Source: Cupriavidus necator
GTDB taxonomy: Bacteria > Pseudomonadota > Gammaproteobacteria > Burkholderiales > Burkholderiaceae
NCBI RefSeq assembly: GCF_016127575.1
Contig: NZ_CP066019.1
Location: 450,001 to 482,000 of the forward strand
Length of the DNA: 32,000 nucleotides
Reading direction: 5' to 3'
Shown: positions 1,802-16,983 of the stretch, piece by piece
Numbering within the stretch: the first letter of the stretch is position 1
Layout of the letters: each line of letters opens with the position of its first letter
Program-made: the position numbers and the translations under genes
Notes under the pieces: generated by a model
What the model saw: the letters and a program-made list of their open reading frames with translations, nothing else
Told to the model about the DNA's origin: nothing
The model's database searches: none

Positions 1802-2974
1802 CTAAGCAAATGGTCGAATCGATTTGCTGTAGCCGTTCCGGATGCCTGATGAGAAGAACCCGCCGCACTCCGCCTTTCGCGCACAGGGCTCGCATTCTGG
1901 TGCGTATTCGTTCTTCCAGTCAGAGATGGACTTGACATATGCTGGCTCGACATCCGCATTCACCAAGCAGAGTTGATGGTTATACACAGACGTCTTGAGT
2001 CCATAGCTTCTTAGAATCCCGACAGCCGTACTAAGCTCCGTCTTGTAGTCGGCGGGGTCGATCCAGAGCGCATCCAGGTTCGCGCGGGTGAACCCGGTCA
2101 TTTCCAATCCCATTAGCGCGACGTGGTCGACAAACAGAAGATTCCGGGCAATGAATTCTGAAAGCGCAGGCAGACCTTTATAGGTTTGCTTGTGGACCAC
2201 AACACGAATCTCAACTTTCTGATTCAGGCGTTTCAGATTCAGGATGCCTCGAATTGTTTCATCAAAGGCCCCTTCGGCTTGGACAACGTAGTCATGACGT
2301 GCCGGGTCGGCCGAGTAGACTGGGATGCCTATCATCACATCGGGATGCTGAACTGCTGCATATTGTTCAGCAAACGCCGCGGCGGCGAATGTTCGCCCGT
2401 TCGACAGGATGTGCAGGGAGGTACGTGGTAGCCAGTTCCTAATTTGATGAAGCAGATCGATGAATCCGTCGCCGAACAGCGTTGGTTCTCCGCCTGTAAT
2501 GCCCAGCGAACGCGTGTTCCGCGGAATCAGGCGAACGGTCTCCATGGCCTCGTCCAGCAACCAGCGGTCATCAACCTTCTTCGGTGGCTGCGAACACATC
2601 AAGCAATAGTTGTTGCACTGCTCTGTAAGCAGGATGCTGTTGTGGTTGGACTCCGCCCGGAAAAGCGCTCTGATCCTACCGTCGCCGGTCAAGCTGACAA
2701 CATCGCCCTCAGCCAGGTAAGAGAACTCGTCGGTCAACAGGGTGCAGGGGATGTCATCGGTCAGGCTCGTCGGCCGTTCGTTGAACGCGAAATAGTGAGC
2801 GAAGCCGGTGGGGGCCGGCACATTAGATCGGGACAGGTAAGCCCTTGCCCCCCTCAATGGGAGTGGAAGGGCAGGATTCGTACTGAGGCTGAACTGCCGC
2901 CGAGGTGCCGGCGATTGCGGCTGTGGAGCCTTCTCCTCGGCGAGGCGGATAACGCGTCCTGAAAGTGTTAGCAT
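1802..2974 (-). CDS. hxsC: His-Xaa-Ser system radical SAM maturase HxsC
   Basis: Radical SAM CX3CX2C motif (CNNYCLMC) followed by GITGGEPTL. C-terminal Cys cluster CEPCARKAEC-GG. It is the last gene of the hxsA-D-B-C cassette. I prefer ATG at 2974 (MLTLSGRV...) over the track's GTG at 2986; that ATG overlaps the hxsB stop as ATGCTAA. Confidence 0.85.
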   Translation of the reverse strand: MLTLSGRVIRLAEEKAPQPQSPAPRRQFSLSTNPALPLPLRGARAYLSRSNVPAPTGFAHYFAFNERPTSLTDDIPCTLLTDEFSYLAEGDVVSLTGDGRIRALFRAESNHNSILLTEQCNNYCLMCSQPPKKVDDRWLLDEAMETVRLIPRNTRSLGITGGEPTLFGDGFIDLLHQIRNWLPRTSLHILSNGRTFAAAAFAEQYAAVQHPDVMIGIPVYSADPARHDYVVQAEGAFDETIRGILNLKRLNQKVEIRVVVHKQTYKGLPALSEFIARNLLFVDHVALMGLEMTGFTRANLDALWIDPADYKTELSTAVGILRSYGLKTSVYNHQLCLVNADVEPAYVKSISDWKNEYAPECEPCARKAECGGFFSSGIRNGYSKSIRPFA

Positions 2975-4431
2975 CGATTCACCCACCGCATGAAAATTTC
3001 CCTGGCTGCTTCGTCATTGCGCATCTTATCGAGCAGGTACTTGGTAATCCCCATGACGCGCTTGCAGAAGTCGGACTCCGGCTTCCGTCCAAGAACGTCG
3101 CCATACATGCCATGGTGAAACACAGGGTCGGATCCACACCACGGCTCGAACGCACAATCGCTACACATTGGTGCAGACGCCGTGAAGGAGTCTTCGAGGG
3201 CCGTCAGTAGCGCGTCCGCGGTGAATATTTCCTCGTAACTGTTCTGATGAACATTACCGATGCGGAACGTCGTGTCGCCCATCTCACGCAGCATGCGGCT
3301 CTCGTCAGACGCATAGACGTCACCGTCGTAGTTAAACACGACGGCTGCGATGCCGGCGCCTGCAGGAGTCATCAGATCCACAAAGCCAGGGTCTTCGGCC
3401 GACATCATCTTGGTCAGCAACAGGGTGGAGTAGTACTCGGTGAAGGGCGTTCCTGCCTTGTTGAGGGCGAGGATGTAGTCCATTCCCTCTTTGTAGAATT
3501 CGAGCCACCGTTCGGTGTTGTAGGCCTGAAAGCTCTTCGTCTTGAGCGCAAAGCCGTAGGGGGAGAGATGGCGCAGAAAAATACCGTCGAAGCCATGCTT
3601 GAGGTATTCGTCGATGATGTCGCGGACGCGATTCAGACTTGCCGGCGAAGTGGTCATCAGCGCGGATACCGAGTCGTAGCCCACCATGTCGCGGGCGCGC
3701 TTGAGGCCTGAGACAAAGCGCTCGTGACTGTCCCGACCGGGACGCGGCCGGTTCTTGTTATGCAGGTCCGCCGGGCCATCCAGGGAGGATGACAGGAAGA
3801 TCTTGTGGTCGCGACAGAACTCCAGAATCTCATCCGTGGCCAGCGACAAGGTTGTGGTGATAACAAACTGGAGATCCCGGCCTTCCACTTTGTTTATTTT
3901 CTCAGCCTTTTTCACTACATATCGAATCAGCTCGAAGTTCAGTAATGGCTCACCACCTTGAAACTCAATTTTTATAGCGGGGTTCGGGGAACGGAAAACG
4001 AGGTCCAAAGCCTTGTCCGCTGTCTCCGGTGTCATATCGAAGGCCGCTTTGTTCTCCGACTGGCGAGAGACTTGGCAATACTGGCAACTATGATCGCAGC
4101 GTAACGATGCGACAAATATGTGCAGATTCGTGAAGTTGGAAAGCTTACTAAACTTGGTCCGCGTCTTCAGTGTGAGCAGTTCCAAACTAGCTTCGTCACC
4201 GGCTTCACGGAGGAAATGCCGGGATCTCAGCGTAATGTAGTCGGGGTCGCTAGGACTCAAACGATGCGCTACGAGGTCCTCAAGCTGCCGGCGAGATAAA
4301 AAAGCAAACTCGCCGACGGCATTCGTGGCCACCACATTTTCGTTATCCAGGGCTTCAAACCGAAACGGTAGTAACTGATATCGCCCCGCATTCTTGCTTT
4401 GATAGCTCTCTAGGCTGCGAAACTTATTCAT
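2968..4431 (-). CDS. hxsB: His-Xaa-Ser system radical SAM maturase HxsB (SPASM/twitch-type C-terminus)
   Basis: 487 aa with the CX3CX2C motif CDHSCQYC, the block EFQGGEPLL, and the C-terminal auxiliary-cluster-like motif CSDCAFEPWCGSDP...C. The ATG overlaps the hxsD stop (ATGA at 4428-4431). Confidence 0.85.
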   Translation of the reverse strand: MNKFRSLESYQSKNAGRYQLLPFRFEALDNENVVATNAVGEFAFLSRRQLEDLVAHRLSPSDPDYITLRSRHFLREAGDEASLELLTLKTRTKFSKLSNFTNLHIFVASLRCDHSCQYCQVSRQSENKAAFDMTPETADKALDLVFRSPNPAIKIEFQGGEPLLNFELIRYVVKKAEKINKVEGRDLQFVITTTLSLATDEILEFCRDHKIFLSSSLDGPADLHNKNRPRPGRDSHERFVSGLKRARDMVGYDSVSALMTTSPASLNRVRDIIDEYLKHGFDGIFLRHLSPYGFALKTKSFQAYNTERWLEFYKEGMDYILALNKAGTPFTEYYSTLLLTKMMSAEDPGFVDLMTPAGAGIAAVVFNYDGDVYASDESRMLREMGDTTFRIGNVHQNSYEEIFTADALLTALEDSFTASAPMCSDCAFEPWCGSDPVFHHGMYGDVLGRKPESDFCKRVMGITKYLLDKMRNDEAAREIFMRWVNRC

Positions 4432-4718
4432 TGTTGCAACCCTGTGCGCGAGAACGCGTACGCTAAAATCAGGTTTCTCGCTGCCTCTGTTTCGTTTTTT
4501 ATTTGCAGGCGGAGTTGTTGGTCGAGGAGTTCACGTTTGAAGTTGGCTAGAACGTCTTCCAGTGGTGCTGCGATGCCCCCGACCAATTCAATTTCGCAAA
4601 CTACGGAGGTCGGACTTTGCGAGATCAGCACCGTGAGCCGGTCTATGAATCTGTATGCCGCCTTTTGTACCGCCTCCAGGCAGTAGACGGCGGAATCTAG
4701 TTCCAAACGTGTTGTCAT
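4428..4718 (-). CDS. hxsD: His-Xaa-Ser system protein HxsD (small accessory protein)
   Basis: 96 aa, located between the precursor and maturase genes. It contains ELLDQQLRLQI, which fits the LLNDYxLRE-type motif after which the HxsD family model was named (from memory). Translationally coupled to hxsB. Confidence 0.75.
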   Translation of the reverse strand: MTTRLELDSAVYCLEAVQKAAYRFIDRLTVLISQSPTSVVCEIELVGGIAAPLEDVLANFKRELLDQQLRLQIKNETEAARNLILAYAFSRTGLQQ

Positions 4719-4732
4719 GGGGACCTTGGAGG

Positions 4733-4755
4733 AGCCGACCCACGAGGAGTCGGCT
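4733..4755 (-). promoter_or_regulatory. intercistronic stem-loop between hxsA and hxsD
   Basis: 7-bp stem agccgac (4733-4739) / gtcggct (4749-4755) with a 9-nt loop, inside the 58-nt hxsA-hxsD spacer. No U-tract follows on the minus strand. Confidence 0.4.
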
Positions 4756-4776
4756 ATGAAATGTGTTTGTTTCTGC

Positions 4777-5073
4777 TTAGTACCGGCTGGAGTAGTGCGA
4801 CGAATGCGACCGGTGCGACGAATGTGATGAGTGCGACTGATGCCACGCCATCAGCTTTCCCTCATGGGCGTCCGAGCGCTTCAGGATGAAATTGAAGACG
4901 TCGCCGGCAGAGTCTGTCACTGCGATTCTTTCGAGAGATTTGGCGTCAATCGAAGTGGTCGATGAAGCATCAACCGAATGTGTCGGCGCTTGCGACGGCA
5001 GCTGCGCTGCAGTGGCGCCCTGCGCCGCAAAACCTGCGGCGACTGCCGCAAATGTTTTGAGGAACCCCTTCAT
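4777..5073 (-). CDS. hxsA: His-Xaa-Ser repeat precursor protein HxsA
   Basis: 98 aa. The N-terminus MKGFLKTFAAVAAGFAAQGATAA looks like a signal peptide. The C-terminus reads W-HQS-HSS-HSS-HRS-HSS-HYS-SRY-stop, i.e. six H-x-S repeats. Strong SD (GGGAGA) lies 5 nt upstream of the ATG at 5073. Confidence 0.85.
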   Translation of the reverse strand: MKGFLKTFAAVAAGFAAQGATAAQLPSQAPTHSVDASSTTSIDAKSLERIAVTDSAGDVFNFILKRSDAHEGKLMAWHQSHSSHSSHRSHSSHYSSRY

Positions 5074-5867: not shown

Positions 5868-7094
5868 ATGGCGTACTCGAAGTCCAGGACCAGTCTGCTG
5901 ATTGCTTTTCTCATTGCGAGCAGCGCCACTTTCGCGCAGCATGAGGTCAATTTCCACGACCCCATCAATATCGAAGGCCACGTGTCGGAAAAAAATGGCC
6001 CACAACATGCAGGTGGAGCAGAAAAGGGTGGCCCGGAGGGCCCACGCGACAAGCCAGCTAACGGCCCAACCACCACGATTCAGGCTCAACCCATTGATGT
6101 AGTTGCGGAAATGTCCCGCGGTCGAATCAGCGGGAAGGATGCTGTTCCTGTCACGGTGGGAGGCGTCACCTACATGGTGTCGCCTCAAGCAAAGGCGGAC
6201 CTGAAGGAATTTATCAAGACGTACAACGCGACCGGCCACGTCGGACAGCTTGTCGCTGCAGCCGCAACCCTTTTCGCAATGTTTGGACTCGTCACCGAGC
6301 CCGATCTGAGTCAGATCGATTTCAACATCGACGAGACTGTAATGGTGCTGTCGGCGCCTTCGATCTTTGCAGCAGCTTGGCGCGCCCAGGCCTTGGACTA
6401 TGTTCGAGGCTACATCAATCCCAGCCGCGCCCATACCCAAGAGGGTCGCATGTGGCAGCGGATGGAAGATCTGATCCGCGAGCCGGGGAGGTATCGCGAC
6501 GGCGGTATCAAGCGGGAGCCGAATGGGCAAATACAAATGCGCGCGCTGCCCGCGCAGCGGTATCGCGATGTGCCAGGCGACTATCCCCTGACGCAAGCGG
6601 ACGAGGTCGAACTGGGACGGCTGATCGATAGCCTGCGACGGAACCCCATTGCCATGGACTACCTTGCTAAAACTGACGCCGTGTTGGGCATCTATACGCA
6701 GGACCCACAAGGACGGCCAAGACTGTCCGCACGAGACCAATACCTCATGAACATGGCGCTACTGCGACTCGCGCCCCAAGAGAAGACACAACTCGCACAA
6801 GCATTCTGGCGAAACACGCAGTTTCCGGCCGCACTCACGCCGGCATTCTGGTCATCCATGTCGGCCTACCTGCAGCGTGAGGAATGGGATCGCAATTCGC
6901 ACATCGCAATCCTGCGTCACATGGCGGGCTTCAGCGACGACCTTGGCTTTCCGGACGAGTTGCCGAGGTATGACGATGGGTTCTGGACGAACATCGCACC
7001 AGCAGCGTTGGCGGCCACTGGGCCGATCTTCGTCTTTCCCCAGCACGGCCCGCAGGCTTGGACCTTCCACTATCCCGGTCCCGGAGGCCAGTAG
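5868..7094 (+). CDS. hypothetical secreted protein (no recognisable domain)
   Basis: 408 aa with a Sec-type N-terminus (MAYSKSRTSLLIAFLIASSATFAQ|HE). Amino-acid composition is balanced compared with the Arg/Cys-rich antisense ORF 5859-6740. GGAG lies 11 nt upstream of the ATG. Confidence 0.65.
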   Translation: MAYSKSRTSLLIAFLIASSATFAQHEVNFHDPINIEGHVSEKNGPQHAGGAEKGGPEGPRDKPANGPTTTIQAQPIDVVAEMSRGRISGKDAVPVTVGGVTYMVSPQAKADLKEFIKTYNATGHVGQLVAAAATLFAMFGLVTEPDLSQIDFNIDETVMVLSAPSIFAAAWRAQALDYVRGYINPSRAHTQEGRMWQRMEDLIREPGRYRDGGIKREPNGQIQMRALPAQRYRDVPGDYPLTQADEVELGRLIDSLRRNPIAMDYLAKTDAVLGIYTQDPQGRPRLSARDQYLMNMALLRLAPQEKTQLAQAFWRNTQFPAALTPAFWSSMSAYLQREEWDRNSHIAILRHMAGFSDDLGFPDELPRYDDGFWTNIAPAALAATGPIFVFPQHGPQAWTFHYPGPGGQ

Positions 7095-8019: not shown

Positions 8020-8520
8020 CTAGCGAATCCTGTCGAACCCACCAGCAGCCCAACGCTCTGCGCTGTCCCGCGTCAGCCGAAAGTCGGGCCGCACCTTCAC
8101 AGTCGCCAGCACATCGCCGAAGGAATCCTCAGCCGTGAGCGTGCCAAAGGGCTCGAATTCATCCGGCGTAATGACGAGCTTCACAATCACAGTGCCGGAT
8201 TCAGACTCGATACTGACCTGCTTGTTGAGCTGCGCATGCAATTGCTGCTCATGCCGCCGGATAACCTCTGAAGCCGTCTTGACCAGCGTCTGGTGCGCAG
8301 TGGCATCCAGCGGCTTGGGATCGACCTTGTTTCGCCCCATGGTCCAGGGACCGACCAGCGCGGGCTCGGCGCTGCCGCCGCGGATCATTTCGACTGCCCA
8401 GCCGTCGCCGTCCTCGTTCTTGATGACGCGGGCGGTCCAGCCCTTGTCGCGCCAGAGGCGGGGCTCGTGGATGGCGGTGGATTCGTGCTCGGAAAGGGCG
8501 TCGTCGGTGTGGTGCATCAA
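8020..8520 (-). CDS. hypothetical protein (166 aa)
   Basis: Composition is protein-like (…WTARVIKNEDGDGWAVEMIRGG…). TTG at 8520 and ATG at 8517 are adjacent candidate starts. I recognise no domain. Confidence 0.55.
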   Translation of the reverse strand: MMHHTDDALSEHESTAIHEPRLWRDKGWTARVIKNEDGDGWAVEMIRGGSAEPALVGPWTMGRNKVDPKPLDATAHQTLVKTASEVIRRHEQQLHAQLNKQVSIESESGTVIVKLVITPDEFEPFGTLTAEDSFGDVLATVKVRPDFRLTRDSAERWAAGGFDRIR

Positions 8521-8749: not shown

Positions 8750-9436
8750 CTATCCCTGATCCTTCTCGGACAGCGCGCTTTCCAGTAGCTCACGTGCCTC
8801 CCTTCCATGAAGCCAAATGCAACGCTTCCATTCTTCGGTGGCTCCGTGCCTTCCTAAATATGCCTCGCGCTCTTCGGCGGTTAAGGATTCCCAGAATGAA
8901 GACCAATAGTTATCCCACCAATATTCAATGTCGCCTTGCAGGAATCCCAGCTTAAGCGGTTCGCTAATCTCTGGAAAGGCGACCCACGGAGGCGGTGGAC
9001 TTGAGTTGGCCACTACTATGCGATCCAACACGGAAGTATCGTTGGTCATCATTGATACTATTGATCCAGAAAATTCATTACTGAACGCAATGGAGATGAA
9101 AAAATCTCCAGCCTCATTGCCGCTGCGTCTTATATACAAGTGCTCATCAACTTTATCGAATCCGTTTTTAATGCCTTCGATAAGCTCATGTACCTTATTC
9201 GACTCCAGTTGAAAGTGAGCGTAAAAAGCATTTATACCCGTTCCGGGTAATAAGCTGGAAATCTCAGGGTACCTAGAAGGCCTCTTTTCAGTCGCTGATA
9301 TTGGCACCATATCTAGCGGACGAGAAAATAAACCTTTCAATTCTTCCAGCGAGCGGCCGAAGCGTGCTCGGAGGGCTCGATTCCGCTCCTCGGCGATACG
9401 CCTGTGAGTCAACATGTCGCGCAATTTCTTGAGCAC
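8750..9436 (-). CDS. hypothetical protein (228 aa), AT-rich gene with a Trp-rich C-terminal region
   Basis: GTG at 9436 is preceded by GGAG with an 8-nt spacer. The C-terminal block PPPWVAFPEISEPLKLGFLQGDIEYWWDNYWSSFWESLTAEEREAYL looks like a folded domain that I cannot name. Confidence 0.6.
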   Translation of the reverse strand: MLKKLRDMLTHRRIAEERNRALRARFGRSLEELKGLFSRPLDMVPISATEKRPSRYPEISSLLPGTGINAFYAHFQLESNKVHELIEGIKNGFDKVDEHLYIRRSGNEAGDFFISIAFSNEFSGSIVSMMTNDTSVLDRIVVANSSPPPPWVAFPEISEPLKLGFLQGDIEYWWDNYWSSFWESLTAEEREAYLGRHGATEEWKRCIWLHGREARELLESALSEKDQG

Positions 9437-9628
9437 TTATCTCACTCCATTTGATCGACCACCCAGTCCGCGCCCGAATAACCTAGGCTTCCGCCGATGA
9501 TGCCATGGCTAGCGCCGCGCCGGCAGTAGCCGGGGCGCTTGCGCTATCGATCACGGGACAGCCCATCAGGGTGCCGTTCGCGGCCAGCGTCGGATACGCA
9601 TATGGGTCTTGCGCCGTGCGACAGTCTG

Positions 9629-11992
9629 CTAGGCGCGGCTGAACATCGACTTCCTGATAATGGCATGCACGCCCCAGTTGCCATTCACCACCTGCGTGAT
9701 ACCAAAATCCACTGCAACAGAGATCAGCGCAACCGCCTCATCTTCACTCAGCCCCTTGACCGACATAAGGAAGCGGCGTGTCTTGCGGAAGGCGTCGCGC
9801 ATGGCGTCGTCCAGGGTGGACTTCAGGTAGATATGGCTCTGCGCCATCTGGCCCAGTTCAGCCAGGTGGTTGGGCGAGCTGAAGCCATGCAGGATCCATT
9901 CGTCGGCGGTTTCCACCAGCGGGTAGCTCAGGTCGGCGAAGGGAGCGTCGCGGTCGATCATGGTGCTCTTGTGCAGGACGAGCTGGAAGTCACCGGTCAG
10001 CGAGCATTCGATGGCCGTGCCGCACAGCTCGGAGTCTCCCTGCGAGGCATGGGGATCGCCAATCGACAGCAGGGCGCCCGGCACGGCTACCCTGAGGTAG
10101 ACGCTGGCGCCCCGGGTGACGCGCCAGTTGTCCAGGTTGCCGGCGAAGCTGGAGGGCGGGATGGAGTCGATCAGGCCGTCCTGCGCCGGCGCCACGGCGA
10201 TGACGCCGAAGTGGGGGCGGACCGGTATCTCGATATCGCGCAGCACGTCGTAGTTCTTGACGATGGTGTCGTGGTCGACCGGCACGCCGGGATAGTCGAT
10301 GGTCGGGTGCAGCACGCCGAACGGATCGCGCTGCGGCGTCCAGCGGAAGTTGTAGACCGCGCGCGCACGGCTGTCGGCGCGTTCGCAATCGATCTCGAAG
10401 ACGGTGACCACTTCGCGCTCGCGCGGCTCGGTCAGCATGTCGCGGTAATGAAAGCCCCACCAGGTCGCGGCGTTGCTGCCGAAGGCCCTGCCGGCAAAGC
10501 GCGGGTTGCAGCACGGGCGCGGGCGCACGTCCAGGATGCGCACCTCCAGCACATCGCCGGGCATGGCGCCGCGCACCGCGACCGGGCCGGTGCAGATATG
10601 CACGCCAAAGCCTTCGCCGGCGCCGCGGCCGTAGACCGACGCATCGATGGGGCCCGCGCCGCGCCGGTTGACGTTCTTCTGCTCCGCGGTCCAGTGAAAG
10701 ACGCTTTCGGCGCCGGCGTCGCCGTCGATCATGCGTTCCCGGTCGTCAGAGGCGTGCTGCGTCAGGGTTTCGATGGTGACGGTGTCGCCGGGCATGACCT
10801 CAAGCACGGGCGGCAGGTCGTGGCTGAGATAGCCCCAGTGCACGGTCTTGTCCGTGGCCTGCAGCCAGTGGTGCCGGCCTTCCGGGCGGGCGGCGTGCGA
10901 GCGCGCCTGGGTGATGGGGACGATGGTGGGCGCCGCTTGCAGGCGCGCAGCAGGGCCATCGTTCGCGGGCGCGCCATGGCTAGCGGGAGCCCGCTTCGCA
11001 TTGGCCGGAAGCCCGCGGGAGACATTCTGCGGTGGGCGATGCTCGGGCGTGTTCGCGGTCTGCTCACGGTAGGCGCGGGGCGAGATCCCGAACTGTTCGC
11101 GAAACGCGTGGCTGAAGTGCGAAGGGTCGTTGAAGCCCCAGCGATAGCAGATGTCGGAGACCGAGAGCTTGTCGTACTGGTGGTTCGCCAGGTCGGCCCG
11201 GCATCGCTCGAGCCGGCTGGTGCGCAGGTAGGCGGAAAAGCTGCTGCCGGATTTCTCGAAGAGCTTCTGCAGGTAGCGGGCCGACATGCGCTCGTCCGCG
11301 GCGATGGCGGCGAGGCTGAGTTCCGGCTCGGCAAGGCGTGCGTCGATGCGGCTGCAGACGCGCGCAAAAACGGCCGCGCGCGAGGGCGTCATGTCCGGCG
11401 GTGCGCTGGGCTGGCTGTCGGCCAGCGCGGCGTCAAGGCAGGCGGTGATGGTGTTGTCGAAGGGCTGGATGGCCTTGGCGTTTGCGGACACGATGGTGTC
11501 GAAGCTGGCCGCCATGGACTGGAGCAGGCGGGCAAACAGTTCAGCGGCGTCGCCGCTCAGCACCAGCGCGGAGCGAGGCAAGGGGGCCGTGATGCGTGCG
11601 CTCAGCAATGCCTGGCCGATATGCACGATCAGCATGCGGAAGCTGGTGGCCAGGGCCAGCCTGCGGGCGGCGTGTTCCGGCACGCAGACCACCTGCCCCG
11701 GCCGCAGCGGTTCACGCAGTTCCGGCGCAGCGAGGTGCGCTTCGCCTTCGGTCAGCATCAGCAGCATCAGGCCGCGGCCGTCGCCGCTGGTGATGGCCAG
11801 CGTCTGGGGGACCGATGCAATGCAGGTCAGCTCGATGCCCGCGGGGGTGGTCCGCGACTCGATCGTGCCGTGCAGGGTGTGATCGGCGCACAGGCTTTCG
11901 CAATGCAGGCGTGCGGCGCGGAGTTCGTCACGCCAGGCTGCGCCGCGCCGGTTGTGTGGATAGGCTTCGGTGGAAAAACGCAAAAGGTGCAA
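9629..11992 (-). CDS. AraC-family regulator (effector domain + HTH) fused in-frame to an acetamidase/formamidase-family domain
   Basis: One uninterrupted frame. The AraC HTH reads …RYLQKLFEKSGSSFSAYLRTSRLERCRADL…ICYRWGFNDPSHFSHAFREQFGISPRAYRE and ends ~11060. A Pro/Ala/Arg-rich linker spans 11059-10865. The amidase domain (TVHWGYL…GDVLEVRILDV…NLDNWR…SIGDPHASQGDSELCGTAIE…FGITQVV) runs to the stop at 9629. Start reassigned to TTG at 11992 (AGGGAGG + 5 nt), because the track's start at 12199 overlaps the upstream XapX gene. Confidence 0.7.
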   Translation of the reverse strand: MHLLRFSTEAYPHNRRGAAWRDELRAARLHCESLCADHTLHGTIESRTTPAGIELTCIASVPQTLAITSGDGRGLMLLMLTEGEAHLAAPELREPLRPGQVVCVPEHAARRLALATSFRMLIVHIGQALLSARITAPLPRSALVLSGDAAELFARLLQSMAASFDTIVSANAKAIQPFDNTITACLDAALADSQPSAPPDMTPSRAAVFARVCSRIDARLAEPELSLAAIAADERMSARYLQKLFEKSGSSFSAYLRTSRLERCRADLANHQYDKLSVSDICYRWGFNDPSHFSHAFREQFGISPRAYREQTANTPEHRPPQNVSRGLPANAKRAPASHGAPANDGPAARLQAAPTIVPITQARSHAARPEGRHHWLQATDKTVHWGYLSHDLPPVLEVMPGDTVTIETLTQHASDDRERMIDGDAGAESVFHWTAEQKNVNRRGAGPIDASVYGRGAGEGFGVHICTGPVAVRGAMPGDVLEVRILDVRPRPCCNPRFAGRAFGSNAATWWGFHYRDMLTEPREREVVTVFEIDCERADSRARAVYNFRWTPQRDPFGVLHPTIDYPGVPVDHDTIVKNYDVLRDIEIPVRPHFGVIAVAPAQDGLIDSIPPSSFAGNLDNWRVTRGASVYLRVAVPGALLSIGDPHASQGDSELCGTAIECSLTGDFQLVLHKSTMIDRDAPFADLSYPLVETADEWILHGFSSPNHLAELGQMAQSHIYLKSTLDDAMRDAFRKTRRFLMSVKGLSEDEAVALISVAVDFGITQVVNGNWGVHAIIRKSMFSRA

Positions 11993-12089
11993 TTGAACCT
12001 CCCTGGCATCACGCTGCAACAGCGAAAACGGGCGGACATTGCTGTCCGCCGCGCATCCAAAGCATTTCCTGCGAAGGCCGGGCCCTCCG

Positions 12090-12281
12090 CTAGCCGAACA
12101 GCAACTGCCCCCGCATCGCGGCCACCAGTACGAATCCCGCGAACGTGCCAAAGATGGCGAAGATCCCGCCGAGCACGTTCGGGGCCGGTATCGGTGCACG
12201 TACCGCAGTGTAGATAACGCCGGTCACCAAGCCAACGGCTGCGGCCTGCAGCTCGGTGCTGCCCAATGCAATTTCCACCAT
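12090..12281 (-). CDS. XapX-domain (DUF1427-like) small membrane protein, copy 2
   Basis: 63 aa: MVEIALGSTELQAAAVGLVTGVIYTAVRAPIPAPNVLGGIFAIFGTFAGFVLVAAMRGQLLFG. Two hydrophobic helices flank a P-I-P-A-P-N-V turn. GGGGA precedes the ATG at 12281; ATG at 12299 is an alternative start. It is the internal part of track ORF 12090-12620. Confidence 0.65.
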   Translation of the reverse strand: MVEIALGSTELQAAAVGLVTGVIYTAVRAPIPAPNVLGGIFAIFGTFAGFVLVAAMRGQLLFG

Positions 12282-12313
12282 GTCATTCCCCAATCTCATG
12301 AGTTGCGCGTGAT

Positions 12314-12523
12314 TCAGCGGCTTTCCGGCGGCCGCCCGAAGGCGATGGTCCTGCGCCACGCGTGCACGATCAGATAGCCGATGTAGGTGAAGAGGATGGC
12401 GCAGATCCCGCCGGTGACGTTTGGCGCGGGGATCGGCAGGTTCAGCCAGGAATACAGCGTGCCGGTGACCAGGCCGACAATCAGTGCAACCAGCTCGTTG
12501 CGTCCTATGTAGACGTATTGCAT
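12314..12523 (-). CDS. XapX-domain (DUF1427-like) small membrane protein, copy 1
   Basis: 69 aa: MQYVYIGRNELVALIVGLVTGTLYSWLNLPIPAPNVTGGICAILFTYIGYLIVHAW…. It shares the PIPAPNV core with copy 2. SD GGGAGA lies upstream of the ATG at 12523. Confidence 0.7.
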   Translation of the reverse strand: MQYVYIGRNELVALIVGLVTGTLYSWLNLPIPAPNVTGGICAILFTYIGYLIVHAWRRTIAFGRPPESR

Positions 12524-12555
12524 ATGGCGCTCTCCCTTTGTATTGAGTTGACGGC

Positions 12556-13581
12556 TCAGCCCTTGTCCTTGGGCGGGAAGATCGAGCGCGGCATGGTGCA
12601 ATGGATGCCCTGGGTGCCATCGACGACCTGCGTCACGCCGAAGTCAGCCGAGACGCTCATGAGCGAATAGGCATCGTCGCGCGAGAGTCCCTGTTGCTCG
12701 GTCAGCAGGTGGATCATGTCGCGGGCCGCGTTCTTGCCGGCTTCATCCAGGTCTTCATGGAAGCCGTGGACGACCCAGCAATCCGGCGTTTCCAGCAGCG
12801 GCGAGGGGAAGTGGAAGTCCTTGCGCAGGACCACCTGGAACAGGACGTTCAATGAGGCCTCGATGGCGGTGCCGCTGATCTCGCCGTCGCCTTGCGAGAT
12901 ATGCGGGTCGCCGATCGAGAACAGCGCGCCGTCGACCTGGACCGGGTAGTACATGGTGGCGCCCGCGCCGATGCGCCAGTTGTCGATATTGCCGCCATGC
13001 AGGCCGGGCTCGACGGTGGTGACGCGGCCGCGCGCGTCGGGCGCGACGCCAGCGGTGCCCAGGTGCGGGCGCACGGGAACCCGCACACCGGCCAGCGCCG
13101 GCTGCCTGCAGCATTCCCGCTCATCCACGAGCTTGCCGGGGATGGTCATCTTGCCGGGGTAGTCGAAGGCGTACAGGGCATGCGCGGTGTTGGAGCGCTG
13201 GTCCAGCTCATAGATGGTGACCCGCTCCTTCTCGAACTCTTTGTACAGCTGGCCCCAGTGCGCCGCGGCATTCGCCCCGAAACGGAAGCGCGGAATCATC
13301 TGCAGGTAGCGCACCTCCAGCACGTCGCCGGGCTTGGCGTCTTCGACATAGATAGGGCCGGTCATGATGTGCACGCCGGGGTTGCGGTCGTCGTGGGGAA
13401 TCGCCCGGAAGATCTCGCGAATGGCGTCGTCCATCATCAGGTCGGGGGCATCGCCGGCATGGTGGGTTACCGCTTCGGCGCGGATGAGGTCGCCGCTTTT
13501 CACGGTCAGGGCGGGCGCCTTGGCGGCATCGAAGTAGCCCCAGTGGACGGTCTCGGGGCGGGCGGGCAGGTCGTGCAGCAT
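12556..13581 (-). CDS. acetamidase/formamidase family protein
   Basis: 341 aa with ETVHWGYFD, PGDVLEVRYLQ, GGNIDNWR, SIGDPHISQGDGEISGTAIE and DFGVTQVVDG. It is a paralog of the C-terminal domain of the 9629-11992 product. Confidence 0.9.
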   Translation of the reverse strand: MLHDLPARPETVHWGYFDAAKAPALTVKSGDLIRAEAVTHHAGDAPDLMMDDAIREIFRAIPHDDRNPGVHIMTGPIYVEDAKPGDVLEVRYLQMIPRFRFGANAAAHWGQLYKEFEKERVTIYELDQRSNTAHALYAFDYPGKMTIPGKLVDERECCRQPALAGVRVPVRPHLGTAGVAPDARGRVTTVEPGLHGGNIDNWRIGAGATMYYPVQVDGALFSIGDPHISQGDGEISGTAIEASLNVLFQVVLRKDFHFPSPLLETPDCWVVHGFHEDLDEAGKNAARDMIHLLTEQQGLSRDDAYSLMSVSADFGVTQVVDGTQGIHCTMPRSIFPPKDKG

Positions 13582-13852
13582 GTTGTCTCCTATGTTTTCT
13601 TGCAGCCGTGTCCGCAGCCGTTCACCCGGTGAGCGGCTGGATTCGATGAGGTAATCAGGGACACTGGCTATGCGTGGCAGGCGGGGTATGCCTGGTACCG
13701 CGCGGCAGTCCTGCTGGCGCCGCGCGGTGAGTCAATACTAGGGACAGGGCGTTGCGGGGCAGTAGGGCGATTCACCCCAAACTCTTGTGTTGCTGCGTAC
13801 TAAGGTAAACCCGCTGCACGATGCCGGGTCGCGGCGGGCTGTTAATTCCTGG

Positions 13853-13899
13853 TTGACATCGTGTCAACGATCTATGGAATTGTCGACAACGCCTTGACA
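13853..13899. promoter_or_regulatory. cluster of TTGACA/TGTCAA palindromic half-sites (candidate operator or promoter)
   Basis: TTGACAtcgTGTCAA at 13853-13867, TTGTCGACAA at 13880-13889 and TTGACA at 13894-13899. The cluster lies ~270-320 nt upstream of the amidase operon start and ~150 nt downstream of the cqsS stop. Confidence 0.3.
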
Positions 13900-14014
13900 G
13901 TGCGGAAGCCCGGCAGAGCCAGGGGCTGATGCTGAGGATGGCAGGGGCCCTGGGCATGGATGCCGCGCAGGTTGCGGGGCTGAAGGCCGCCGGGGGTGGT
14001 GTAAGTCGCTGTGC

Positions 14015-14037
14015 GGCGCCGGCGCAATGCCGGCGCC
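14015..14037 (-). terminator. GC-rich hairpin immediately downstream of cqsS
   Basis: Perfect 9-bp stem ggcgccggc (14015-14023) / gccggcgcc (14029-14037) with a 5-nt loop, 8 nt after the cqsS stop codon. There is no clear U-tract on the minus strand. Confidence 0.4.
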
Positions 14038-14045
14038 TGCTATTG

Positions 14046-15374
14046 CTATTGCGATGGCGCCTCGGGCCATTTCCCCTTGCGGGGAAGGCGCATATCGAAC
14101 TCGGTGAACACGTGCTCCTCGGAGCGGCAGCTGATGCTTGCCCCCCAGCTGTTCAGCACCTTCTGGCAAAACGCCAGTCCGATGCCGGTGCCGCGATGTG
14201 CCGGGTAAGAGAAGAAGGGCTGGAACATCCGGGCCAGCACTTGCGGCGGCACGCCCGTGGCGGTGTCGCGGAACACCACATGGACGGCGTCGGGCCGGAC
14301 CTCGCAGCGGATATGGATGGTGCCCTTGCCGGCCCGCTTGGTCGCTTCCAGCGCGTTCTTCAGCAAGTTGGTCGTGACCAGCCCGAACAACTGGGCGTTG
14401 CCCATCACGTAGGCGGGGCCAGGCAGGTCGACGGTGACCAGATCCAGGTCGCTGTGCTCGAACGGAAACCGGCCGACAGCGTCGCGGATCACACCGCCCA
14501 GTTCGAACAGCTCCTGCGTGGCGTTGTCCGGGTTCTTGGAGTTGGCGACCAGCAGTTCAATGCTGTTGCTAATATGGGCCAGGTCTGATTCCATCCGGGC
14601 CACGGCCTGCATCAGGCCGTCGCGCTGCGGCGTGTCCTGGTCCAGGGCTGCCGGCAGCCGCGCCTTGAGGCCCCTGGCAGTCATGGCCAGGCTGGTCAGC
14701 GGCGTGCGCAGTTCGTGCGCGACGGTGGCCAGCGCGGCGGCCATCCCGCGCCGCTTCTGTTCGGCCAGCAGCTGGCGGTCCATCTTGATCACCACCAGCA
14801 CCGCGATGACAAAGCCGATCACCGGCAGCTGCAGCAGTACCGGCTCCCACGGGATTCCGCCCATGGAGTTGCCCGCCAGCACGAACAGCGCAATGGCTGC
14901 TGCGGCCCCTGAGAACAAGGCAATGGTCGCGAACGCGGTGTTGAAGTGATACAGGATCACCACCGCGATGATGACCGATTCGGCCCACACCATGGAGCCG
15001 CCATTCTCCAGGTAGAAGAAGATAAAGGCGAACGGCAGGCCTATGGTAATGGCAAAGAGTGCATAGGGCGGCAGCCAGCGCCGGTCCGAGAAGGCGGAGG
15101 CGAACAGCAGCGGCACGAACAGCGCGGTGCAGACCAGGCGCAGCCAGAGGTTTTCATAGGGCTGCGGGAAGATGTAGGACCAGATCACGTAGTACAGCGG
15201 GTGTCCGATCACGCCCAGCGCCCCCACCATCTGGATCCGGCGCAGCCGGATGACGCTCTCCTCGTCCAGCAGCGTAGCCCGCGCGGCGGTCTCGAATACA
15301 GTCTGCCACGCATCGCGGGCGACGCCGGCAAGTGAGGTGCGGCCGTCTTCCGCTTGCGCTACCTTTGCATCCAT
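14046..15374 (-). CDS. cqsS: CqsS/LqsS-type alpha-hydroxyketone autoinducer sensor histidine kinase (no receiver domain)
   Basis: The polytopic N-terminus (…GALGVIGHPLYYVIWSYIFPQPYENLWLRLVCTALF…) aligns by eye with V. cholerae CqsS (…GMLGFPAYYFIWEYWFPQSYENLGLRCAAAVLF…). H-box is HELRTPL, N-box is LLKNALEA, G-box is GTGIGL. The protein ends ~30 aa after the G-box. Start set at ATG 15374, 9 nt after the cqsA stop; the track's start at 15461 overlaps cqsA. Confidence 0.8.
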   Translation of the reverse strand: MDAKVAQAEDGRTSLAGVARDAWQTVFETAARATLLDEESVIRLRRIQMVGALGVIGHPLYYVIWSYIFPQPYENLWLRLVCTALFVPLLFASAFSDRRWLPPYALFAITIGLPFAFIFFYLENGGSMVWAESVIIAVVILYHFNTAFATIALFSGAAAAIALFVLAGNSMGGIPWEPVLLQLPVIGFVIAVLVVIKMDRQLLAEQKRRGMAAALATVAHELRTPLTSLAMTARGLKARLPAALDQDTPQRDGLMQAVARMESDLAHISNSIELLVANSKNPDNATQELFELGGVIRDAVGRFPFEHSDLDLVTVDLPGPAYVMGNAQLFGLVTTNLLKNALEATKRAGKGTIHIRCEVRPDAVHVVFRDTATGVPPQVLARMFQPFFSYPAHRGTGIGLAFCQKVLNSWGASISCRSEEHVFTEFDMRLPRKGKWPEAPSQ

Positions 15375-15382
15375 CTCCAGGA

Positions 15383-16675
15383 CTACTCCTCGCGGGAGCC
15401 TGCCAGCGACCCGCTTGTGGGATTTTGAGACTTGCGCCGGGCCCGGCGCGTCGAGGACCATTCATCCAGCCGGACTTCGTCGCGGATGCTGGCGAGCACG
15501 CCGACCAGGCGGTCGATTTCATTGGCGGCAAGTTTCGCATGCAGCGTAAGTCGCATCAATGCCCGATTCTTCGGTGTTGCCGGCGCACAGAATACCGCGC
15601 CGAAGATCCCGCGGCTCTGCAGCGCATCGCGCAGCACCTTGACTTGCGGCTCGGTTCCCGCCTCCAGGCCGATGATCTGCTCGGAGCCTTCGCTGATGTT
15701 GTAGCCCAGTTCGGCAATCGCAGCCCGGGTGTCGCGAGTGATGGCGTGCAGGCGCGCACGGCGCTCATCCGCCGTGGCGACGAAATCCGTCACGGCATCG
15801 AACCACGCAACCTCATGGCGCAGCAGCCCGGAACTGAAAATGGCCGGCCGGGACTCAACCGCGAAGAAGTCCTTGAAGTCGGTCGAACAGGCAACATAGC
15901 CGGCGCGGCCGGCAAACGCCTTGGCCAGCGAGGCCGTGCGGAAGTGTACGCGCTCGGACAGCCCGAGCGCGCGCACCAGGCCGCCGCCAGACGGCCCATG
16001 GGTGCCGAGCGAGTGCGACTCATCCACCACCAGCACGCAGCCAGACGCCTCCGCCAGGTCGACATAGTCCTCCAGCGGCGCCACGCTGCCGGTGGTGCTG
16101 TAGACCGAGTCCACCATGATCACGCCCGGGCCGAAGCGCTCAAGCTGGCGGCGCACGTGCTCGCAATCGTTGTGGCGCACCGGCACGGCCTGCGCGCCCG
16201 CGGCGATGATGCCCTCCCACAGGGAGGCATGCCCGTTCATGTCGATATAGACCGGAATGCCGGGGCCGGCAATGCACTGCACCAGGCCGACGTTGGCGGC
16301 CCAGCCGGACTGGGCGATCAGCCCGTCCTCGGCCTGCATCAGGTCTGCGATCTTGCGCTCGACGCGCCGCTGCGGGGTGTCGCCGTGCTGGAACACGGAC
16401 GACATCAGCAACTCCGGCTCCTCATTGAGGAAGGCCCGCGCCTGCGCCTGTACCAGAGAGGTCTCGCCGAGCAGGCAGAGATAGTCGTTGCTGCTCAGGT
16501 GCAGTGCATCGGGCCCGGGCGTGCGTCCGTGAAGCAGATGATCGCCGCCCCAGAGCTTGCCCATCCGCTCGTCGAAATGTTGTGCCATCCGCGCCGTGAT
16601 CCATGGCGGCAGCGTGGGGGCTTTGGCGCGAGAGGCGTGGCGCATCGAGTGCGGAGGCTCGGCTTCGGAGAACAT
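15383..16675 (-). CDS. cqsA: CqsA/LqsA-type autoinducer synthase (PLP-dependent alpha-oxoamine synthase family)
   Basis: Blocks SQSGWAANVGLVQ, VDSVYSTTGSVAPL, VDESHSLGTHGPSGGGL, HFRTASLAKAFAGRAG, PAIFSSGLL, EQIIGLEAG and FGAVFCAPATPKNRALMRLTL match V. cholerae CqsA almost block for block (from memory). Start reassigned to ATG 16675 (SD GAAGGAAAG); the upstream part of the track ORF looks non-coding. Confidence 0.9.
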   Translation of the reverse strand: MFSEAEPPHSMRHASRAKAPTLPPWITARMAQHFDERMGKLWGGDHLLHGRTPGPDALHLSSNDYLCLLGETSLVQAQARAFLNEEPELLMSSVFQHGDTPQRRVERKIADLMQAEDGLIAQSGWAANVGLVQCIAGPGIPVYIDMNGHASLWEGIIAAGAQAVPVRHNDCEHVRRQLERFGPGVIMVDSVYSTTGSVAPLEDYVDLAEASGCVLVVDESHSLGTHGPSGGGLVRALGLSERVHFRTASLAKAFAGRAGYVACSTDFKDFFAVESRPAIFSSGLLRHEVAWFDAVTDFVATADERRARLHAITRDTRAAIAELGYNISEGSEQIIGLEAGTEPQVKVLRDALQSRGIFGAVFCAPATPKNRALMRLTLHAKLAANEIDRLVGVLASIRDEVRLDEWSSTRRARRKSQNPTSGSLAGSREE

Positions 16676-16983
16676 CGGCTTTCCTTCTACAGGTCGGGTA
16701 ATCAGTGAGATCGGTGGCAAGGCTCTGCATGGCGGTTGCGGCAAAAAGCTGCCGTCCGCGCGCGACGCGGCCGCACCCAGTCCTTCCGGCGAGGTGCCAT
16801 TGCTGACAAGTCGGGGGAGTCCTGTTGACGTAGCGACCACTGTGCCAGCCTTACTCAGCGATTGTGACCGGACTTCCACCAATCCAACGTCCGTTTGGAG
16901 TGGGGGGTGCCGGGTTGAGACAGCCGCGTCGTGGCCGCACCTTCGCCGGCCGATAGGCCGATTTCTCACTGTAAAATGCCTTT

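Follow-up and report, generated by a model that had tools for sequence, protein, structure and literature searches.

The stretch of Cupriavidus necator DNA analysed here (contig NZ_CP066019.1, positions 450,001 to 482,000; 32,000 nucleotides, referred to as the window) carries on its minus strand a gene, at 9629..11992, that encodes an AraC-type regulator fused in frame to a complete amidase domain of the FmdA/AmdA family. The fusion is conserved in other bacteria, and it is found almost constantly next to a free-standing amidase gene. Together, these two observations make an amide-sensing switch for the amidase operon the most likely role of the protein. It is proposed, with a probability of about 0.5, to be a one-component, amide-responsive activator of the adjacent amidase operon, in which the regulator's own amidase domain would act as the sensor and would probably still be catalytic.

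One reading frame for a regulator and an amidase

The minus-strand frame is free of stop codons from 12199 to 9629, a maximum of 856 codons. A TTG at 11992 lies 5 nt 3′ of the sequence GGGAGG (11998..12003, minus strand), read as a Shine-Dalgarno element, and the stop codon occupies 9631..9629. The aligned position serves as the start in 84 of 119 homologues; this agreement, plus the Shine-Dalgarno element, indicates a product of 787 amino acids (aa), and supports the start proposed in an initial annotation made from the sequence alone. The GC content at third codon positions (GC3) was 0.84 in this frame and 0.66 in an antisense open reading frame (ORF) at 9539..12217, identifying the minus frame as the coding one. 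The antisense ORF (plus strand, 892 aa) is GC-rich, with a GC content of 0.83 at first codon positions, and was discarded as a shadow ORF rather than a gene. Pfam profiles for AraC_binding_2, HTH_18/HTH_AraC and FmdA_AmdA were all found in the one protein, which therefore combines a DNA-binding domain and an enzyme domain in a single polypeptide, the architecture of trigger enzymes.

The initial annotation stated that no stop codon separates the AraC helix-turn-helix (HTH) from the amidase domain and that a Pro/Ala/Arg-rich linker of about 65 codons connects them. Both statements were correct: the frame is open, FGISPRAYRE (the end of the HTH) finishes at 11063, TVHWGYL (in the amidase domain) starts at 10846, and the 66 residues that separate them are rich in Ala, Pro and Arg. 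The remark that the linker contains no ATG holds for the reading frame, in which the window linker has neither ATG, GTG nor TTG, but not for the other frames, where four ATG trinucleotides are present. A CTG at 10864, pointed out as the only start-like codon near the amidase domain, is indeed in frame, 13 nt after a GAAGG; however, it codes for the conserved Leu of an H-H-x-L motif at the start of that domain. An ATG within the last 20 linker codons was present in only 1 of 85 fusions, and no internal start codon is conserved, which argues against a separately initiated amidase.

The two parts were inspected in 88 loci: that of the window, seven obtained by contig look-up, and 80 from genomes of Beta-, Alpha- and Gammaproteobacteria. 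In 86 of these the AraC and amidase parts share one stop-free frame. One of the remaining two loci was cut by a contig end, while the other fell under the score threshold, its 798-codon ORF being recovered later. A protein search for recurrence of the architecture, as proposed in the initial annotation, returned at least 120 full-length protein clusters (about 785–830 aa, 54–91% identity) from Cupriavidus, Paraburkholderia, Pandoraea, Caballeronia, Pararobbsia, Janthinobacterium and Ramlibacter. Among the matches listed, that closest to the window protein came from a Cupriavidus metagenome-assembled genome (91% identity). In a genome scan with a single representative for each species, at least 590 matches were obtained; the 80 best of these add Variovorax, Rubrivivax, Thiomonas, Herminiimonas and Nevskia, along with the Alphaproteobacteria Parvibaculum, Methylobacterium, Beijerinckiaceae, Stellaceae and Acetobacteraceae. 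The fusion spans Beta-, Alpha- and Gammaproteobacteria, down to 48–55% identity; at 50% clustering about five full-length clusters remain, so the family is compact yet widespread. No genuine split orthologue was found among the loci examined. Stand-alone AraC proteins of 317–341 aa are paralogues without the R-G-x-P tail described below, and a seeming stand-alone regulator of 352 aa beside an amidase (P0183) proved to be cut by a contig end.

Conservation is uneven along the protein. In comparisons of 119 homologues with the window protein, identity was 30–40% for the N-terminal domain (the least conserved folded part), 60–72% for the HTH, 13–29% for the linker and 70–95% for the amidase domain, which is the best-conserved part. 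Over the same genome pairs, mean pairwise identity was 77% for the fused domain versus 85% for the neighbouring 428-aa-type enzyme, and 72% versus 76% for the neighbouring 341-aa-type enzyme. By this measure, the fused domain is only slightly faster evolving than the stand-alone enzymes next to it. The comparisons indicate that the fusion architecture is old and under purifying selection, and rule out both an artefact and a recent stop-loss; a single chimeric polypeptide of about 787 aa, as predicted in the initial annotation, is the expected product. A sequencing error or indel, also considered there, is at odds with the same frame recurring in 86 of the 88 loci, well beyond what chance would give. 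The suggested recent stop-loss joining a regulator to its target is contradicted by the age of the fusion, by its spread over three classes and by the target amidase still being a separate gene next door.

Domains of the fusion protein

The first part of the protein (aa 1 to about 205; 11378..11992, minus strand) corresponds, according to Pfam, Foldseek and an AlphaFold2 (AF2) model, to a cupin-like AraC_binding_2 domain plus a helical region. The Pfam match (PF14525; 11492..11779) scored 27.2 bits, the cut-off being 27. In the AF2 model the N-terminal domain is beta-rich over residues 1–126 and helical thereafter, with predicted local distance difference test (pLDDT) values of 80–90. An AraC-type double HTH DNA-binding domain follows (aa 231–311; 11060..11302, minus strand); scores of 78 bits for HTH_18 (cut-off 33.6) and 56.5 bits for HTH_AraC (cut-off 26.6) identify it as an AraC/XylS domain. 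Foldseek matched the regulator part to CuxR, ToxT, Rns and AraC-type HTH domains. For residues 22–312, the named protein that matched best was FeaR, the AraC-family activator of phenylethylamine/tyramine catabolism, which has the same AraC_binding_2 plus HTH_18 architecture but no C-terminal domain. These residues cover the entire FeaR model (E 9e-34), and stand-alone AraC paralogues of 317–341 aa show 35–39% identity to the regulator part; the N-terminal part can thus be taken for a complete FeaR-like AraC regulator and not a fragment. The score against the FeaR equivalog (NCBIfam PRK09685) was 117.2 bits, below the cut-off of 199; judged by these profiles, the regulator part is FeaR-like but is not FeaR.

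The linker (aa 312–372; 10877..11059, minus strand) is rich in Ala, Arg and Pro, and was predicted to be disordered from the AF2 model, in which residues 315–370 have pLDDT values below 50. Linkers vary in both sequence and length among homologues. In 85 fusions, the distance between the HTH end and the T-V-H-W-G motif is 62–100 aa (median 75). The longest hydrophobic run in any of the 85 has 11 residues, so the linker is neither a transmembrane segment nor a signal peptide, and a ToxR-like membrane-spanning topology was rejected because no run reaches 18 residues. An origin as a degenerate twin-arginine translocation (Tat) signal was also rejected. Although a HMMER alignment to a Tat-type relative (P0126) reached into the linker, BLASTP found no real similarity before the R-H-H motif, and nothing resembling S-R-R-x-F-L-K with a hydrophobic region behind it is present in the linker, in contrast to P0126. 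One short element of the linker is conserved: S-R-G-L-P in the window protein (11006..11020, minus strand), which corresponds to R-G-x-P in the homologue alignment. R326, G327 and P329 are invariant in 98 sequences, and the motif was present in 82 of 82 fusions, 12–17 aa past the end of the HTH. It was not found in the tails of 10 stand-alone paralogous AraC proteins.

The amidase domain (aa 373–784; 9641..10876, minus strand) is complete and belongs to the FmdA/AmdA family (PF03069, 95.5 bits versus a cut-off of 27). It is of the subtype represented by PDB entry 3B9T, which it matches with E 7e-181 over 412 residues (about 60% identity by Foldseek) and with which it shares subtype insertions. 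That entry, from Methylobacillus flagellatus, is a predicted acetamidase/formamidase that was deposited under the name ‘Tat pathway signal protein’. No functional study of 3B9T was found in the literature. The domain is 65% identical to P0126 (482 aa, with a Tat signal), 58% identical to a cytoplasmic stand-alone amidase of Paraburkholderia fungorum (428 aa) and, in a pairwise comparison, 37% identical to the neighbouring 341-aa amidase. Whereas 3B9T and P0126 are stand-alone proteins, and the latter has a twin-arginine signal, the fused domain is internal and without a signal peptide, and must therefore be cytoplasmic. The score against the FmdA formamidase equivalog (NCBIfam NF045496), 59.4 bits, lies far under the cut-off of 500, making the name formamidase unsuitable.

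The family-wide motifs of the amidase domain are in place. The motif G-D-P-H-A-S-Q-G-D-S-E (aa 645–655; 10028..10060, minus strand), a D-x-H...D-x-E arrangement presumed to form a metal or catalytic site, is intact in the window protein and invariant in the fusions, and is common to both stand-alone amidase types and to PDB entries 2F4L, 2II1, 3TKK and 5UBU. N619, D621, D646, H648, D653 and E655 do not vary among the fusions, and the stand-alone enzymes and PDB members have the same residues; both family motifs (G-G-N-x-D and G-D-x-H-A-x-x-G-D-x-E) are retained. At 103 positions that are invariant and identical in both types of stand-alone enzyme, the fusions kept the residue in at least 95% of cases at 79, including every His, Asp and Glu of both motifs. 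For the motifs shared across the family, a loss of catalytic residues was not found.

The amidase operon and the proposed switch

A stand-alone FmdA/AmdA gene was found in the fetched flanks of 76 of 85 distinct fusion loci, and within 800 bp in 65 of them; six of the nine loci without one were cut by contig ends. The two genes may be co-directional, divergent or convergent. In the window, the module lies entirely on the minus strand and consists of an amidase gene, two XapX genes, a hairpin and the regulator gene. The amidase (12556..13581; 341 aa; 112 bits in Pfam) is a paralogue of the fused domain and is presumed to be the enzyme under the regulator's control; orthologues with 70–94% identity adjoin the fusion in 38 loci. 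The XapX-domain small membrane proteins have 69 aa (12314..12523; TIGR03510, 68.1 bits) and 63 aa (12090..12281; TIGR03510, 55.8 bits). This tandem pair is conserved in 17 loci, 15 of them with the short amidase type and two in Herminiimonas (L084 and L085). In the latter, the amidase upstream of the pair is of the long, 3B9T-like type, 57% identical to the regulator's domain, showing that the XapX pair associates with either type of amidase. This fixed association may be a clue to XapX function.

The four-gene module recurs in Cupriavidus and Pandoraea, as well as in Variovorax soli and some Paraburkholderia. It behaves as a self-contained unit, since its surroundings change from one genome to another: in the window it is bordered by a CqsA/CqsS-like pair and a low-GC island, in Cupriavidus sp. 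a3 by a LysR gene and a fumarase gene. In other lineages the fusion is paired with SBP_bac_3, a fused permease/ATPase of the ATP-binding cassette (ABC) type and a 428-aa amidase, with or without RidA. The V. soli fusion, which belongs to a XapX-type module, is 67% identical to that of the window, while those of other Variovorax, of the ABC type, are 53–54% identical; in these comparisons, fusion similarity follows the type of module and not taxonomy.

Phylogenetic footprinting revealed a conserved block of 88 bp upstream of the amidase operon (13725..13812, minus strand; GGGTTTACCTTAGTAC...CCCTA...CTAGTATTGACTCACCG) in four genera: Cupriavidus, Paraburkholderia, Pandoraea and, within Variovorax, V. 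soli. Three C-Y-T-A-like elements lie within it, and the -10-like TAGTAT at its end is accompanied by no good -35 box, a layout typical of activator-dependent promoters. The block may be the site at which the regulator binds. In the window it is followed by some 145 nt of leader; that of Pandoraea is much shorter. Between the second XapX gene and the regulator gene lies a GC-rich hairpin, GGCGGACAGCAATGTCCGCC, followed by CGTTTTCGCT with a short T-run (12031..12050, minus strand). Other Cupriavidus loci share this hairpin, and different GC-rich hairpins take its place in other genera. It is a possible partial terminator and may attenuate read-through into the regulator gene. An Rfam scan of 9400..14200 found no riboswitch or leader family.

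These elements can be assembled into an amide-sensing switch. The amidase domain of the regulator, a duplicate of the kind of enzyme controlled, would bind a small amide substrate and probably hydrolyse it. Its occupancy or turnover would be signalled via the linker, with its R-G-x-P motif, to the AraC module, and this would switch on the operon's weak-(-35) promoter, which lies behind the conserved block (13725..13812). Expression of the regulator gene itself would be weaker, either by read-through of the hairpin on the shared transcript or from a start of its own. A small polar amide is the probable substrate, given the amino-acid-type ABC importer and RidA that accompany the fusion in other versions of the locus. 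That the amidase domain might be a sensor or autoregulatory module had already been suggested in the initial annotation, and this fits the near-universal adjacency of the fusion to paralogous stand-alone amidase genes.

Several observations weigh against this proposal. The full-length AF2 model shows no confident contact between domains (predicted template modelling score, 0.48), and the true sensor could be the cupin-like domain at the N-terminus. A neighbouring amidase is missing from three loci whose flanks are complete. The conserved promoter block could serve a different regulator; its YTAGTWC element, present in the promoters of XapX-type loci, was not found near the ABC-type loci examined, and an operator motif common to the locus types was rejected. 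Finally, two positions at which neither of the close stand-alone enzyme types varies have changed: His412 is replaced by Gln in 90% of the fusions and Tyr633 by Leu in 98%, which could mean that catalysis is altered or lost.

These last replacements, near-universal in the fusions, bear on the alternative that the amidase domain is a pseudoenzyme: a pure ligand-binding domain that would hold an amide (or a metal plus an amide) without turning it over. A precedent is provided by MocR/GabR, in which an aminotransferase-like domain serves purely for ligand binding. This alternative is also favoured by P0141, a diverged fusion (metagenome representative, 665 aa) that lost the G-D-P-H-A-S-Q-G-D-S-E motif along with several insertions. 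P0141 may be a natural ‘dead-enzyme’ form of the regulator and, if it is functional, catalysis is dispensable in at least one lineage. However, every residue invariant across the family is kept in the fusions, and the two replaced positions are not family-wide: the segment with His412 is missing from distant members, and the 330-aa type of amidase has Leu at the equivalent of position 633. Moreover, pure sensor domains often drift more than enzymes, whereas the fused domain is almost as constrained as the real enzymes. A sensor without turnover is regarded as rather unlikely.

The opposite refinement of the switch is that the regulator is a true trigger enzyme, in which turnover by an active amidase domain would set the DNA-binding state of the AraC module, and/or in which mixed oligomers would form with the neighbouring amidase, R-G-x-P acting as a docking or transmission element. 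This is put forward only tentatively. If true, it would give an AraC regulator a new way to read flux or enzyme level, beyond ligand concentration alone.

The fusion might instead be of the Rosetta-stone kind, without cross-talk: the amidase domain would be an additional working enzyme, attached to the regulator so that the two are co-expressed or kept in stoichiometric proportion, and all sensing would fall to the cupin-like domain, as it does in FeaR-like regulators that stand alone. The completeness of the regulator part, with its full-length FeaR match and its stand-alone paralogues, fits this explanation, as do the apparently intact catalytic residues of the amidase domain and the absence of any predicted contact between the domains. 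Regulators are, however, normally far scarcer than catabolic enzymes as a matter of general reasoning, such that tethering would yield little enzyme, and a separate paralogous amidase is kept nearby in 76 of the 85 loci. Nor would a passive passenger be expected to be strictly conserved together with R-G-x-P, while the N-terminal domain is the least conserved fold. Independent function of the two halves appears improbable. All but excluded are errors of sequencing or assembly, a stop-loss of very recent date and a second, free amidase product from internal initiation, for which solely the GAAGG...CTG near the start of the amidase domain speaks, against a single frame kept across many genera, the absence of ATG, GTG and TTG from the frame of the window linker, the rarity of ATG in the last 20 linker codons (1 of 85 homologues) and a CTG that codes for a conserved Leu.

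Related designs and other features of the window

In the usual AraC-family design the sensor domain comes first and the HTH lies at the C-terminal end. Ada of Escherichia coli departs from it, with a sensor module followed by an AraC-type HTH and a C-terminal enzyme domain. Its domain order, shared by Ada/AlkA-type fusions, is that of the protein described here, and shows that an AraC HTH can carry an enzyme at its C-terminal side. Ada differs in being a suicide O6-alkylguanine transferase activated by self-methylation of its N-terminal domain, and is unrelated in sequence outside the HTH. PutA, BirA, NadR, MocR/GabR (an aminotransferase fold on a GntR HTH) and the GATase1-like AraC regulators GbdR and CdhR likewise join a metabolic-enzyme fold to a DNA-binding domain, and sense a pathway substrate through an enzyme-type pocket. 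These trigger enzymes and enzyme-derived sensors come from other enzyme families, and none of the precedents is known to use an FmdA/AmdA amidase. In GbdR and CdhR, moreover, the enzyme-like domain is N-terminal and replaces the cupin, whereas the fusion keeps its cupin-like domain and bears the enzyme after the HTH.

A comparable task, the control of an amide-inducible amidase operon, is performed in Pseudomonas aeruginosa by AmiC/AmiR, which govern the aliphatic amidase operon through a periplasmic-binding-protein-like sensor and an ANTAR antiterminator; the logic is wholly different and there is no homology to the fusion. A related study, which also cites AmiC/AmiR, deals with FmdA_AmdA amidases linked to SBP_bac_5 transporters, in another type of operon with an ANTAR regulator (bioRxiv 10.1101/2024.02.22.581678).

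The family is already annotated in databases and, as a regulator design, it is a variation on known designs; nothing in it contradicts current understanding. What it adds is a complete enzyme after the HTH, kept in many genera of three proteobacterial classes beside a paralogue of that enzyme. If the amidase domain is the sensor, the fusion would be a clear natural example of a regulator acquiring a duplicate of the enzyme it controls for use as a ligand-binding module. It could then provide a ready-made scaffold for amide biosensors, and a handle on the substrates of two widespread, uncharacterised FmdA/AmdA subfamilies and of the XapX small membrane proteins. A literature search found no experimental study of the AraC-amidase architecture. 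Database names for its members are not uniform, which is a problem for annotation: besides ‘acetamidase/formamidase/AraC-like DNA-binding protein’, the names ‘acetamidase/formamidase family protein’, ‘AraC family transcriptional regulator’ and ‘Tat pathway signal domain protein’ are in use.

Two further systems flank the module in the window. Immediately upstream of the amidase operon, a CqsA/CqsS-like pair (14046..16969, minus strand) encodes an alpha-hydroxyketone-type quorum-sensing autoinducer synthase resembling CqsA/LqsA (15383..16969; 615 bits, cut-off 428) and a sensor histidine kinase whose best match, below the cut-off, was LuxN (14046..15461). Directly downstream of the regulator gene, the GC content drops to 53–60% between about 2000 and 10000, compared with 65–70% elsewhere in the window. 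The corresponding flank in Cupriavidus sp. a3 differs, and the low-GC stretch is probably a horizontally acquired island. Three of its ORFs, at 5868..7094 (plus strand), 8020..8520 (minus strand) and 8750..9436 (minus strand; GC3, 0.51), gave no family match. The stretch also includes a complete His-Xaa-Ser system of four minus-strand genes (1802..5073), all of which scored above the NCBIfam equivalog cut-offs: the repeat peptide HxsA2 (4777..5073), with a signal peptide and the C-terminal tail HQSHSSHSSHRSHSSHYSSRY, HxsD (4428..4718), the radical S-adenosylmethionine (SAM)/SPASM maturase HxsB (2968..4431) and the radical-SAM maturase HxsC (1802..2986).

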